A stretch of DNA of 64,000 nucleotides from positions 123,814,001 to 123,878,000 of the forward strand of contig OX597816.1 in assembly GCA_951406725.2 (NCBI GenBank). Direction: 5' to 3'. The stretch is from Octopus vulgaris (taxonomy: Eukaryota). A model generated the notes under the pieces. It worked only from the letters and a program-made list of their open reading frames with translations, had not been told where the DNA came from and searched no databases. Position numbers and translations under genes: made by a program. Positions 2,171 through 58,919 of the stretch are shown here, in pieces (the stretch's first letter is position 1; each line of letters starts with the position of its first letter).

Positions 2171-2417
2171 AATATATATATATATATATATATAATCAAT
2201 ATAGGGTGGCAAAAAAAATTTTGTAGAATTCTTTTGCCACCAGCGGCCTAGTAGGAAAAAATTAAATAGTCATAGACCATTTTTAAGTTTAACATCAACA
2301 ATCAAGGAACGGCCATAATAGGCCATTCACCCACTAGAAATAACAGCCAAAGCTTCAACCGCAAATAAAAGTCAATTCTGTAAACCAGGAGAAAATTTAA
2401 AAAACATTTACCCTGTA

Positions 2418-2524
2418 ATTTCTTATACGATATACCGTTTCATCTGCTGATTAATGGTAAACCAACCTGATTAAATTAAATCAAGCCAATCTTCCACAGG
2501 CCCTCAGATTCCTCAGTAAGAAAT
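2418..2524 (-). ncRNA. Type I hammerhead ribozyme (unit 1)
   Basis: Minus strand: AUUUCUUA-CUGAGGA-AUCUG-[58-nt structured insert]-CAGAU-GAAA-CGG-UAUA-UCG-UA^UAAGAAAU. Perfect 8-bp stem I, 5-bp base of stem II, stem III A-U/C-G/G-C/G.U, intact core, GUA cleavage triplet (cut between 2426 and 2425). Confidence 0.9.
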
Positions 2525-2909
2525 AGCCCAAGTCGGAACAGATATTTGCACGAGGCATTTCCGACCTTGCCAAGTTTATATCTGACCTAAAATTTTCAAA
2601 TCGTCGCACTCGCGCCAAATTTATCGGCAGCAAATAAATATAAGCCGTCGATTCCATTACGGAATTAACCAGAAAATTCATAATTAATCAATATAGGGTG
2701 GCAAAAAAAATTTTGTAGAATTCTTTTGCCACCAGCGGCCTAGTAGGAAAAAATTAAATAGTCATAGACCATTTTTAAGTTTAACATCAACAATCAAGGA
2801 ACGGCCATAATAGGCCATTCACCCACTAGAAATAACAGCCAAAGCTTCAACCGCAAATAAAAGTCAATTCTGTAAACCAGGAGAAAATTTAAAAAACATT
2901 TACCCTGTA

Positions 2910-3016
2910 ATTTCTTATACGATATACCGTTTCATCTGCTGATTAATGGTAAACCAACCTGATTAAATTAAATCAAGCCAATCTTCCACAGGCCCTCAGA
3001 TTCCTCAGTAAGAAAT
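2910..3016 (-). ncRNA. Type I hammerhead ribozyme (unit 2)
   Basis: Identical to 2418-2524, offset 492. Confidence 0.9.
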
Positions 3017-3401
3017 AGCCCAAGTCGGAACAGATATTTGCACGAGGCATTTCCGACCTTGCCAAGTTTATATCTGACCTAAAATTTTCAAATCGTCGCA
3101 CTCGCGCCAAATTTATCGGCAGCAAATAAATATAAGCCGTCGATTCCATTACGGAATTAACCAGAAAATTCATAATTAATCAATATAGGGTGGCAAAAAA
3201 ATTTTGTAGAATTCTTTTGCCACCAGCGGCCTAGTAGGAAAAAATTAAATAGTCATAGACCATTTTTAAGTTTAACATCAACAATCAAGGAACGGCCATA
3301 ATAGGCCATTCACCCACTAGAAATAACAGCCAAAGCTTCAACCGCAAATAAAAGTCAATTCTGTAAACCAGGAGAAAATTTAAAAAAACATTTACCCTGT
3401 A

Positions 3402-54475: not shown

Positions 54476-56375
54476 TATCCCGGCACTGTATGGACTTCGC
54501 AAGGACCATAAAGGTTTTACTGACCCTATAGCAGGACCACCAACAAGACCAGTCTGTGGAGCGAATATCGCTAGCAATTACAGAATCTCCTACTTCCTCT
54601 CAATGATCATACGCCCTATAATCAGGATGTCACCTGATGTATGTGACAGCACAGAAGATCTCCTAAGCAGGATCAGTGACTGTAACAAAACTTGTGACTT
54701 GACAGGATGTATAGTAGGTAGCATGGATGTGGTATCCCTATACCCATCGATTGACGTAGATTTTGCAGTGGAGAAGTGCGTGGAGATGATCAACGAGAGC
54801 CAGGTGGAGTTCTGTAATGTCGACACAGAAGAACTGGGCCTCCTACTTAGACTGACATATAATAGTGAATACTTAGATAAACATAATCTTAGTAGTTTCT
54901 GCCCCAGTAGATGTTTAAGAGGTAGACCGCCTACAATTACTTCTATGGCTAGGAAGACACATATAGAAAGATGGCGCGGATGGACCAGAGCCATACGGAG
55001 CCCCGCAAATGTCCATCAGGTAAAGAAAATGATCGCACATGCACTAGGAGCTAGTATAAGAGTTACCCTAAAAGGCCACACATTTAAATTTAATAATAAA
55101 ATATATGCCCAGGACGAGGGGGCAGCCATCGGTGTTAGTATCGCTGGTGATGTGGCCAACCTCTTCATGGTATGGTGGGACAGAAGGCTTAAAGAATGCC
55201 TACTGCAGAAATCCATACTCGTAAACATGTACTCTCGCTATGTTGATGATATCAATATAGTAGTAAAGGCACCCCCACAAGAAAGTACTGTTGATATAGT
55301 AATAGAAACTAATACTATGGAGAGCATCCAGCAAATAGCTAACTCCATCCACCAGAGTATTAAGGTCACAATAGACTACCCCACTAAACACCCCAACCAT
55401 AGACTACCAGTACTAGACACTGAACTCTGGCTAGAAATTGTGAAAAATAAAACCCAAATCCTTCATTCATACTATGCAAAACCTATGGCCTCAAAATACC
55501 TGATCCACCGGAACTCAGCCATTGCGGGCAATGCCAAATTCAATATTTTGATGGCAGACCTCGTCAGAATAATGAGAAATGTGTCACGCATGTGCGAGCC
55601 TACAGAATTAAAGAGACACATACAGTATTTCATTCACCGCATGCAGTTCTCAGGTTACAGCCATAAAGAAAGGATCAGAGTATACAAAGGAGCCATGAAG
55701 AAATTTGATAATATATTATGTAATGATAGGAATGGGATTTGCCCACTCTACAGGAACAAGTCATGGAACACTATAGAAAGGACAAAAAAGAAAATAAGGA
55801 AGGCCAACTCTTGGTATGATAGCCATAAATACCAGAGTGTCATGTTCGTTGACACCACCCCTGGAGGTGAACTAGCGTACCGCTTTAGAAGGACCCTAGA
55901 TAAACTTAAACTAAGAATTAAGGTTGTTGAAAAGCCAGGCAACCCTATCAGATCTATAATTGGTAGAATCTATCCTTTTAGTAGAACTCTCTGTACGGAT
56001 AACTATTGCACTGTATGTAGATTTAGCCCACAAACGAACTGTAAAGCCAGAAATGTGGTCTATAGTATAAGATGTATAGAGGGACGATGCAGTAACAAGA
56101 CAGTAACATACGTAGGGGAAACTGCAAGAAGCATTGGTGAGCGGGTGAATGAACATTGGAGACAACTCAAGAAAGGTAAAAGCTCATCGATTCTGTACCA
56201 ACACGCCGAACAAGAACACGGGGGATCAATCAATAACATAGAGATTAAGATATTGTCCACACATAGAACAGATGCAACAATTAGACAAATTACAGAAGCT
56301 ACACATATAATAGAAAATAAACCTAGCCTGAATAGAAAACTAGAATGGAGCAATAGCGCACACCACAACATATGA
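54474..56375 (+). CDS. 5'-truncated inverted copy of PLE ORF (RT core plus GIY-YIG), frame intact
   Basis: Open from 54474 ([13 protein letters not shown]...) through the 590-aa ORF 54603-56375; differs from the minus copy by one extra A (no frameshift) and an E>K change in LK(E/K)GKSS. Confidence 0.88.
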
Positions 56376-56898
56376 CAATAGTGGATCCTGCAAACATAAT
56401 AAATACACAGGTAATTAAAGAAATAGAAATGAATATCTATATATATGTATATGTGTATATATATGTATATGTATATGTGTATATATGTGTGTATATATGT
56501 ATATATATATATATATATATATGTATATGTATATGTATGTATATATATATATATGTATATTCTTTTTTTTTTTTTTTTTTTTTTCTCGATTAGATTTATT
56601 ATTATTATTACTAATATTGTTGTTATACATACATACAAGCATATGTAATGATAATAATGGGTGGATGTAAACACATGAATAAAATTAGAACAAAAGCAAC
56701 AACAACAAAAACAAAATACAAATTACAAGAATGTATATAACCAGAAGATACAAATATTACAGGCATCCCCCCCCCACACACTAAATAAACATAGACGCAC
56801 ATAGAGATATAAGCATGCGCAAATGAAGACATACAATAGAAATACAAAATGGCTGACGGTTAGTAAGGAGAGACACAAGTAAGTGAGAAGAAAACAAA

Positions 56899-56943
56899 GG
56901 ACCACTGATGCGGTCACAGGAGTGTGACGAAAGAACTTTGGCC
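56899..56943 (+). ncRNA. Hammerhead-like motif in inverted copy's pLTR
   Basis: GGACCACTGATGCGGTCACAGGAGTGTGACGAAAGAACTTTGGCC. Confidence 0.5.
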
Positions 56944-58919
56944 GAAATAAGATTAAGATTAATGTAAAAAATAAATATCACTGAAGCAAAATAACACCAA
57001 ATATATAGTGCGTGTGTTTTTATTGGCTAAACTGGCAATATGACCATTCCGAAATATAACAATATATATATATACTTGCATATATACATATATATATATA
57101 TATATATATATACACAAACATATATGCACACACACACGCACACACGCACATGTACATATAGGTACTCTTATGAGAATGTAAGTTTGTTTGGCCCATTGGT
57201 TGGTTTTGAACCGGTGGATTCACTGTGTGTATGTGTAGTCACCAACTGTTCTCAAAGAAAATAAGAAAAGGTTGCCTGCTCTCTGCTTTGCTTGACTCAG
57301 AGAAGTTACTGCTTTGGGTGAGAAGTTTCTTGCATTTGGGGGAGAGACAATGACGTGGTGTACCCTTGCCAGATTATTTTGTAAGTATAAAAAACAGTGG
57401 CTGAGAGGTGAGAATAAACCTCAGCTTGACTTTGGATTATAAATTTCTGCCTGACTTAGGATTATACAACTTCAGCCTGATTTTGGATTGGGGACAGTTT
57501 CCTTGTCTACAGTAACTGTAGCAATACACACATACATACATGTGTACCTTCTAATTCTTCATATTTCTTTGAATGTTCCATATATTGTATAACAACTCTC
57601 ACCCTATCTCTTTGTATTTATAACATGTTTTAATTTTTGTGTTTCACATTCCATGTTATCTTTCCTTTCTTTGCAACTCCTGGTGAAAGTTTGGTGCATT
57701 TTGCATCTCTTTGAGTCCTTGTGGCTAATAAAATATTATCGTTGTTGATATTGATGTTTGTATTGTTACTAATATTAGTATTAGTATTAGTAGTCTACAT
57801 ATGCTGTCAAAAATGATAGCCAATTCAGTTTGAATTTTTCATTTTTTCTTTATAGATCCAATTACAATTTCAAATTCTTTATATGAATATTGCATAAAGC
57901 TATAAATTCTAAATTTTCTCTGATTTCCCTCTAGGTTTAGACTGTTAAATCTGCTCTTACTTTCAGTCAGTTTTTGGAATTATCCAATATATTTTAGCAG
58001 AAAAATGATTACATGCAAGATTTTTTTTAAATATTTAATTTTTCCTATAATTAAATACATACATTACGAATTATTTATATAAGATCACTTAAAAGAAAGT
58101 TGCTTGAATTATTTCTCATTGATACAATACTATCCCGTTCCCCGCTGGCAGATGAACAATGATCAAAACTTTCAGATTTATCAGGAATATTATATAAATA
58201 GATTAAGCCATGAAAAATCCTCAACTTATACTCTGAATAGTTAACTATTAAACTTTGCTTTTAATCATTTACTTAGTGGAGGACGATATGCAGTGCTCAT
58301 AGCTTTGCATGTCCTCTTAAAAGAGTGAGATCAACACAATTACTATTTAGTTTATAAATGCATATAAATTGAAAATTCTCTTAGAAACATGCATGAGAAG
58401 TGGATCCCGAAATTCACAGGGGAGGAATGAGTGGAGAAATTGTTTACAGCATGGTTTTAAGAATCAGAGATAATAAGTCGGAAAAAAAGAAGGGCAGGTG
58501 TTTGGTATTTACAGAGGAACAATGTAACTTGTGAAATCAAAGAAGTAAAATCTGTTGTAGCTGTGGTGAATAATGAAATAGTTCATTTCTAGGTTAGGAG
58601 CTCTTGCATTTTGGTGGGCGAATCTTTGCCAATCCCATCTCAGATATTCATATATTGAGTAGTAGAACTGCCATCCATAGATGTTAAAACAATATTCCAA
58701 TGTTATTCATCCTTGAATTTAGTTAACACCAGCAACTAATGAGATATAGAATCTGGAATATTTCCAGGTCCTAAAGAATCACTTTTGGCCACACACATAA
58801 ATATGTATAGATACATGCATATATGTGTGTGAGAATTTATATATATATATATATATATATATATATATATATTATATATGTGCATGTGTGTGTTTTTGTA
58901 TATATATATGTATGTATTA

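Follow-up and report, generated by a model that had tools for sequence, protein, structure and literature searches.

Metazoan retrozymes that lack long terminal repeats (LTRs) consist of non-coding, low-GC units arranged in tandem, each with a type I hammerhead ribozyme, and are dispersed as monomers to multimers. Penelope-like elements (PLEs) have been called a strong candidate for mobilising such elements in animals (PMC7229834, Cervera and de la Pena 2020), and vertebrate retrozymes are reported, on homology and co-occurrence, to derive from the pseudo-LTRs of PLEs (bioRxiv 10.64898/2026.07.22.740005, Li, Clavereau and Pollet 2026). PLEs that carry an endonuclease (EN+ PLEs) are themselves organised as a partial tandem with a pseudo-LTR, next to an inverted 5'-truncated copy, and often just one of the two ends has a tail (PMC8557442, Craig et al. 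2021; PMC3846280, Arkhipova et al. 2013); in those with a CX2-5CxxC linker there is a bias towards (TA)n (PMC8557442). Both kinds of element occur in a stretch of 64,000 nucleotides of Octopus vulgaris (contig OX597816.1, positions 123,814,001 to 123,878,000), hereafter the window, which lies on contig C3 of the 2.8 Gb genome that was searched. A retrozyme with a unit of 492 nucleotides (nt) and a PLE of the window share one footprint, namely two paired sites at which back-to-back arms end in (TA)n, and this makes copying of the retrozyme in trans by a PLE-type protein likely. We hold it very probable that an enzyme of this type, with reverse transcriptase (RT) and GIY-YIG endonuclease, mobilises the retrozyme; that the window's own PLE family supplies it is a narrower claim, to which we give a probability of about 0.57.

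The 492-nt unit is short, non-coding and tandem, without LTR, primer-binding site or open reading frame (ORF), which places it among the non-LTR retrozymes; its arms reach at most about 6.5 units each, and no match to PLE protein was found inside the units. It shares with metazoan retrozymes the traits listed above, and departs from them in length, 492 nt against 170-400 nt (PMC7229834), and in having no detectable homology to the PLE loci compared; circular RNA and cleavage have been shown for them and are putative in the present unit. The (TA)n targeting, the inverted arms and the two fixed, paired ends seen here are not described in the available text of PMC7229834 or bioRxiv 10.64898/2026.07.22.740005. 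The PLE of the window resembles EN+ PLEs in the features named, and the Asn-rich insert of its ORF recalls the N-rich inserts of bdelloid Penelope elements (PMC3846280). It differs in its tail, 56 nt rather than 30-40, in the degenerate core of its hammerhead-like motif, and in a near-strict pairing of tailed and tailless ends, which the available text of PMC8557442 and PMC3846280 presents as "often" or "optional". Non-autonomous elements of PLE type, with pseudo-LTRs and multicopy head-to-tail insertions, are known as the MRC1-type elements of Chlamys; at the 3' end these are generally similar to their autonomous partner (PMC8557442), and the octopus retrozyme is not. A literature search to which subscription papers and bioRxiv supplements were external yielded no analysis of retrozyme junctions, no paired fixed ends in retrozymes and no twin priming in PLEs.

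The retrozyme insertion of the window is laid out as follows, position 1 of the unit being the base after the predicted hammerhead cut:

2172-2194, no strand: (TA)n flank at the distal (B) end of the retrozyme, read from the sequence
2193-4585, minus strand: main retrozyme arm, 3' end at distal site B (position 233), 5' end at position 42
2193-2293, minus strand: retrozyme tail, the stretch from site A (132) to site B (233-238), which is terminal only in the B arm
2426-2516, minus strand: type I hammerhead of unit 1, descriptor match
2918-3008, minus strand: type I hammerhead of unit 2, descriptor match
3410-3500, minus strand: type I hammerhead of unit 3, descriptor match
3902-3992, minus strand: type I hammerhead of unit 4, descriptor match
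4583-4710, plus strand: inverted retrozyme arm, unit positions 5-132, 3' end at proximal site A
4709-4734, no strand: (TA)n flank at site A

The main arm holds 4.4 tandem units and, past a jump at 4357/4358 from position 34 to position 269 with a 3-nt overlap, a partial unit of 228 nt. The inverted arm begins 4 nt past the predicted cut and overlaps the main arm by AAA at 4583-4585.

The PLE, whose unit is numbered from window position 53355 downwards, has a parallel layout:

48677-48771, no strand: TA-rich flank at the long end of the PLE
48768-53355, minus strand: full PLE unit of 4,588 nt, whose 3' end is the long (distal) end
48942-48975, minus strand: hammerhead-like motif, terminal copy
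49500-53437, minus strand: coding region in two frames, 1,119 amino acids (53437-50078) and 214 amino acids (50144-49500)
53347-53402, minus strand: PLE tail of 56 nt, bounded by the short (proximal) and the long (distal) start site and lying, in this copy, within the tandem junction
53356-54475, minus strand: upstream partial copy, or pseudo-LTR, 1,120 nt, unit positions 3469-4588
53530-53563, minus strand: hammerhead-like motif, pseudo-LTR copy
54474-57065, plus strand: inverted 5'-truncated arm of 2,592 nt, unit positions 1956-4541, whose 3' end is the short (proximal) site
56905-56938, plus strand: hammerhead-like motif, inverted arm
57062-57112, no strand: TA-rich flank at the short end

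The long end of this copy falls about 9 nt short of the commonest long end of its family, and a frameshift near 50090 breaks the coding region of the full unit; the inverted arm, joined to the pseudo-LTR through a GA overlap at 54474-54475, has an open RT-GIY-YIG frame of 644 amino acids (54441-56375). Translation reveals an Asn-rich insert, of low complexity and located at 51950-52690 on the minus strand, together with RT and, at the C terminus, a GIY-YIG domain, with a CX4CxxC linker and CCHH residues. The domains RVT_1 and GIY-YIG are both matched, each below its curated cut-off, and the frame has 187 homologues, the closest of which, 98% identical, is from Octopus vulgaris. A PLE-type RT and, C-terminally, a GIY-YIG in one ORF, together with the pseudo-LTR, the inverted truncated copy and the one-end tail, make this an EN+ PLE. 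Its linker, of the CX2-5CxxC form, and its CCHH residues are those of the Nematis or Neptune clade; they exclude Penelope/Poseidon, which have no linker, Hydra, in which CCHH is missing, and Naiad, with its N-terminal endonuclease, and the short linker, as described in the same source, suggests Nematis (PMC8557442). Identity with a Neptune-like family of the same genome is only 23-27%.

The initial annotation, made from the window alone, had recognised the two minus-strand partial tandems (2193-4585 and 48768-54475), which stand as described, and had proposed that an RT/GIY-YIG protein primes cDNA from both broken ends of a (TA)n tract. That proposal explains both structures; it does not establish these two families as a pair. 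The genome-wide comparison alters one of its elements: the 3' ends do point outward onto (TA)n, but they do not stop at arbitrary internal positions, since each family has two specific, fixed sites that are paired one per arm.

For the retrozyme, the search returned 1,201 candidate places, 40 of which were scored, and 633 B-end matches on the forward strand. The copies are dispersed over many contigs, as those of a mobile element are, their flanks are unrelated, and they form subfamilies about 6% apart between loci. Two sets were compared: set 1 comprises all 39 scored loci outside the window, chosen by internal sequence, and set 2 comprises 40 regions with 42 of the first 44 distal-end matches on contig C1, chosen by their B end, the other two being already in set 1. 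They give 83 clusters, two of which ran off the fetched DNA, leaving 81 complete insertions. The ends are fixed at site A, about position 132, and site B, positions 233-238, 106 nt apart. Sixty-three of the 81 insertions are head-to-head, and of these 58 pair A with B, one A with A, one B with B, and three involve another end; the A+B share is 28/32 in set 1 and 30/31 in set 2. Since set 2 was picked for its B end, the reverse check from A ends matters: in the first 114.7 Mb of C1, all eight exact A ends face an outward B end within 2.6 kb, as read from coordinates, and none of 55 B ends in the same segment is paired with another B. Of 237 exact A ends, the first 100 include only two candidate A+A pairs. 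In the one B+B insertion, L059 (G000:C5:112952640-112953510), each flank is an inverted copy of the other, which suggests a later fold-back duplication or an assembly artefact.

All 81 insertions lie on (TA)n, on both sides in 73 and on one side in 8. Copies devoid of (TA)n flanks and inversions, or provided with poly(A), which the initial annotation had named as evidence that would tell against it, are not what these insertions present. Its remark that poly(A) and visible target-site duplications are absent is likewise confirmed, although the second absence is uninformative because such a duplication cannot be seen inside (TA)n: in a sister family of the window PLE, sites other than TA have duplications of roughly 8-14 nt. 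In contigs of public sequencing runs, TA loose ends recur at site A in four runs and at site B in two of them, so the retrozyme ends are not an artefact of this assembly. No run on record as RNA was listed for the unit; it does occur in runs guessed to be RNA, and such runs are no guide to transcription, strand or circles.

The window PLE family behaves in the same way. The search for it gave 1,135 candidate places; exact short ends that lie on TA number 2,419. Among 38 loci chosen by their long end and counted by eye, 28 pair long with short, one long with long, one has another end and one could not be assigned, while seven are single-arm; the short end is thus opposite the long one in 28 of 30 head-to-head loci, with sites about 56 nt apart. 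From the other side, 20 regions chosen by their short end show a long partner in 15 cases and a short partner in none, and no short+short pair was found among the first 100 of the 2,419 short ends. The family has natural open frames of 1,310-1,312 amino acids in 10 of the 72 matches listed, and the repaired ORF that the initial annotation had called for is not needed.

How specific is this signature? A search for GIY-YIG gave 6,136 candidates, of which 30 loci fell into eight groups, one of them probably a host gene; searches by protein brought in two more, a sister family that is young (57% amino-acid identity to the window PLE) and a third member of the clade (62%), represented by one of the 68 matches listed. 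Other GIY-YIG PLE families in the genome number at least eight, which is a lower bound, and two were sampled for their architecture. The Neptune-like family (L151-L176, L177-L196) is young, with many frames of 781 amino acids and a degenerate hammerhead core; it has a 38-nt tail, its insertions are mostly single-arm on (TA)n, and it is head-to-head in 2 of 20 loci, both short+long, with seven outward pairs among the first 100 matches. The sister family (L217-L228, L247-L266) has 4,221 exact end matches, and many of its insertions are inverted pairs of 3' ends 250-400 nt long. Its tail is 61 nt; 12 of 20 loci are head-to-head, 11 of them short+long, one of these uncertain. Because two other young PLE families pair their fixed ends, the signature cannot name the partner: it marks an enzyme class.

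The rates do differ between families. Head-to-head insertions make up 31/41 for the retrozyme, 15/20 for the window PLE, 2/20 for the Neptune-like family and 12/20 for the sister (Fisher P: retrozyme against window PLE 1.0, retrozyme against Neptune-like 1e-6, window PLE against Neptune-like 7e-5). Ends fall on (TA)5 in 67/67 cases for the retrozyme, 64/65 for the window PLE and 13/30 true ends for the sister, after dropping 11 retrozyme rows that are internal tandem continuations and two false sister-family anchors. The distance from cut to proximal site is 132 nt in the retrozyme, 127 in the window PLE, and 86 and 76 in the controls. The window family is the best quantitative match of the three PLE families tested. 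Age was also considered as a discriminator and dropped, all three PLE families having young copies, as does the retrozyme.

Several facts weigh against the window family as partner. In Xenopus, 24 of 57 retrozyme families match a transposable element, nearly always a PLE, at its pseudo-LTR (bioRxiv 10.64898/2026.07.22.740005), and such homology is absent between the retrozyme and the window PLE: the best local match is 10 nt, a score reached by 83 of 200 shuffles. The lack of extended homology noted in the initial annotation is confirmed, and recognition cannot rest on it. Against the 3' regions of the three families, in sense or antisense, the retrozyme gave sense scores reached by 83, 22 and 102 of 200 shuffles; nor was a retrozyme match found in the 30 GIY-YIG loci, in 12 sister loci or in the third clade member, apart from a separate short retrozyme insertion in L149. 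No significant match to a PLE pseudo-LTR, the mark of a pseudo-LTR-derived retrozyme, is found for the unit among the PLE loci compared, and unsampled families may differ. The tails of the window PLE and its sister can be aligned, with a score reached by one of 200 shuffles, and the retrozyme lacks this tail; its own, at 106 nt, is about twice the 56 nt of the window PLE and longer than the 30-40 nt in print. Both control families have paired ends as well, so the footprint is not unique and rates alone differ; these rates come from small control samples, 20 each, picked by different end patterns, and it could be the RNA ends, not the protein, that determine how often insertions are head-to-head and how strongly they favour TA. 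Only two of the at least eight other families were sampled for architecture. No hybrid insertion, with one retrozyme arm and one PLE arm, occurs among the 83 retrozyme clusters, and the arms could also owe their identity to gene conversion at a later time or to a pair of RNAs from one source locus.

A less probable alternative is that the mechanism is the same and the partner is another PLE family, whether the sister, the third clade member, the Neptune-like family with its 781-amino-acid frame or an unsampled one, the shared window being due to chance. Both controls are young and have two fixed ends that are paired when inverted (2/2 and 11/12), and the absence of homology to the window family, with at least eight others present, leaves room for such a partner. 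Each named candidate has a weakness: the Neptune-like family is rarely head-to-head (2/20, and seven outward pairs in 100 matches), the sister has 13/30 of its ends on (TA)5 against 67/67 for the retrozyme, and the third member appears once in 68 listed matches. Co-location does not help to choose, since retrozyme and PLE each have more than a thousand copies. Pieces of PLE do lie near retrozyme ends with (TA)n between them, from the window family at L035, L044, L107, L140 and L101 and from the Neptune-like family at L123, and are too few to separate from shared targeting. At L044:3281-4800 the B end of a retrozyme adjoins a TA-rich tract in the 3' untranslated region of a PLE copy of the window family, the part of that copy further 3' being missing.

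Whichever family provides it, the enzyme would act as follows. A PLE protein, probably as a dimer, would cut a (TA)n tract on both strands; reverse transcription would then start within the RNA from each DNA 3' end, at the proximal site for one and the distal site for the other, aided by 2-5 nt of TA/AT pairing; both cDNAs would run towards the 5' end of the RNA and be joined mid-way by microhomology or a few added bases. The template of the retrozyme would be a circle or an uncut multimer for arms that pass through the cut, and cut linear RNA for arms that stop there. Parts of this scheme have a counterpart in vitro in the Poseidon PLE of Anolis carolinensis, where two internal RT start sites bound the tail, and where both strands of an AT-rich target are cut and extended by a predicted dimer (PMC11167929, Frangieh et al. 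2024). In the available text of that work, however, no difference in start site between strands is reported, initiation takes place without homology to the cut DNA whereas the ends described here sit on short TA/AT matches, and no link is drawn to head-to-head arms or templates in trans (PMC11167929).

Compared over overlaps of at least 40 nt in 25 of the 32 head-to-head clusters of set 2, the two arms of an insertion differ at 14 of 2,875 sites (0.49%), against a median of 5.7% between loci; units inside one array differ by 0.30%. In the window there are no substitutions in 120 sites for the retrozyme and one in 2,338 for the PLE. The near-zero divergence initially reported is therefore real within each insertion, where it is expected of any single young insertion, and does not extend between loci, where subfamilies differ by about 6%. 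The arms share private variants, as would be expected if both DNA ends were primed on one RNA source; if later gene conversion did not even them out, the two derive from a single RNA or a single source locus. The middle joint differs at every locus, which implies that joints form anew. The two overlaps of the window, AAA and GA, are not beyond chance alone; over all joints without inserted bases, overlaps of at least 2 nt are found in 10/18 for the retrozyme and 8/12 for the PLE, against an expected share of about 0.17, these being what remains of 41 of 62 and 21 of 28 scorable joints when 23 and 9 with insertions or mismatches are set aside.

As to the template, retrozyme arms cross the predicted cut seamlessly 199 times, so that a circle, an uncut multimer or precise jumps are needed. 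The 5' ends also crowd at the cut, with 17 of 128 at most 16 nt after it (P about 1e-6) and 31 at most 30 nt after it, an excess that alignment edges at position 1 and an AT palindrome at positions 22-34 may have enlarged; this crowding fits run-off from cut linear RNA. Single-sequence folds gave no defensible RNA fold shared by the regions around the start sites (z -4.2 for the retrozyme, -1.1 for the PLE region). Jumps and small additional inversions inside arms are seen in the window at 4357/4358 and in L119, L040, L060, L097 and L102; the jump of L119 lands at position 235, which is site B, as if re-primed there.

Shared private variants, and joints that are sometimes palindromic or near-symmetric (e.g. 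L037, L068, L078), would also be produced if the PLE made the first arm only, the inverted one arising by fold-back copying of that cDNA or through self-priming on antisense transcripts, a model put forward for bdelloid Penelope elements (PMC3846280). We regard this as improbable here, as most joints are asymmetric and the proximal arm, which lacks the tail of the other, is often the longer: A exceeds B in 15 of 58 retrozyme insertions, and in the PLE of L080 the lengths are 3,998 and 547 nt. Neither arm can then be simply a copy of the other. The same count qualifies an earlier description of the head-to-head copies (4583-4710 and 54474-57065): that they are inverted and joined through AAA and GA holds, that they are shorter is no rule.

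In twin priming by L1, both ends of the target prime, giving outward 3' ends and a microhomology joint, with one end at the poly(A) and the other at a variable internal site; in LINEs (long interspersed nuclear elements) more generally, such starts lie at the RNA's 3' end and at a variable internal point, and the arms do not overlap. A LINE of RTE, CR1 or L2 type could move the retrozyme in the manner of a SINE (short interspersed nuclear element), ordinary twin priming providing the inversions, and TA-tailed repeats, putatively SINE-like, are common in retrozyme flanks. LINEs have indeed been put forward as an alternative mobiliser of retrozymes (PMC7229834). This origin is very improbable for the present family, for in retrozyme and PLE alike the two sites are internal and do not vary, the arms overlap one another, and the retrozyme has no poly(A). 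Spread at the DNA level, through unequal crossing-over, circular DNA or fold-back repair in fragile TA tracts, or assembly artefacts, the likeness to PLEs then being superficial, agrees with the inverted flanks of the B+B insertion L059 and with near-identical tandem units, and is scarcely credible for dispersed loci on many contigs that have the same two ends, unrelated flanks and different middle joints, whose ends recur in independent runs and whose 5' ends crowd at the predicted ribozyme cut.

Priming by a PLE protein from both cut ends, at two sites, keeps the advantage, and a more ambitious version can be formulated. A dimer of PLE RT and endonuclease would hold one RNA and prime the two cut ends at programmed, non-equivalent sites, and this would be the general origin of both the inverted copy and the one-sided tail; the retrozyme would be a circular RNA whose 106-nt tail is a structural mimic of that landing pad, without kinship to its helper, rolled by both RTs at once with the protein of the window family. 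Taken as a whole, this version is speculative, and we consider it rather doubtful.

The hammerheads of the two elements are of unequal quality. A canonical type I core is present in four retrozyme units, with an 8-bp stem I, CUGAGGA, a 68-nt stem II region, GAAA, a short stem III and a self-complementary loop III, and the predicted cut falls after GUA. Across 44 retrozyme insertions the ten fixed letters of the core are invariant while the free N7 shows all four bases, and two letters of loop III change together so that self-complementarity is kept; with 47 of 484 columns variable, invariance by itself is weak, and the hammerhead looks to be under selection as judged from these sequences. The motif also attributed to the PLE is atypical: stems I and II and GAAA are present, with a core CUGAUGCG, a stem III of 1-2 bp and, at the cut site, U. 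In the sister family the fold is kept and the core is more degenerate still. A search of the window against Rfam at E up to 1 returned 140 matches, none to a hammerhead and only microsatellite-driven miRNA models. A relative of the retrozyme, 67-75% identical to the 492-nt unit, is found at L103:5400-5930 and L187:4880-5460; it has a CCGAUGA core, a compensated stem I and a palindromic loop III, and the L103 copy, its only one to end there, shares site A as its end.

Two neighbours complete the description of the window. A TA-flanked repeat of 210 nt with a minimal hammerhead-like motif (1958-2168, minus strand) adjoins the left TA tract of the retrozyme; it has relatives in L051, L163 and L217, where it is fused without TA to an end of a sister PLE, and is probably another PLE-dependent non-autonomous family. 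An open frame of 176 amino acids (24667-25197, plus strand) presumably resembles the C-terminal end of a non-LTR retrotransposon protein.

That PLEs mobilise retrozymes has already been proposed in print, and the enzyme behind animal retrozymes has so far been inferred from co-occurrence and pseudo-LTR homology; what is added here is a set of side-by-side family controls. The paired ends give base-level predictions both for that enzyme and for the way in which inverted PLE copies with a one-sided tail arise: each DNA end would have a start of its own, the two lying at 132 and 233-238 on the retrozyme RNA and 56 nt from one another on that of the PLE. Within one genome, a trio of young PLE families that differ in inversion rate and in target strictness forms a panel for finding the partner and the RNA structure that it reads, and this bears on the use of PLE proteins to write foreign RNA into DNA.

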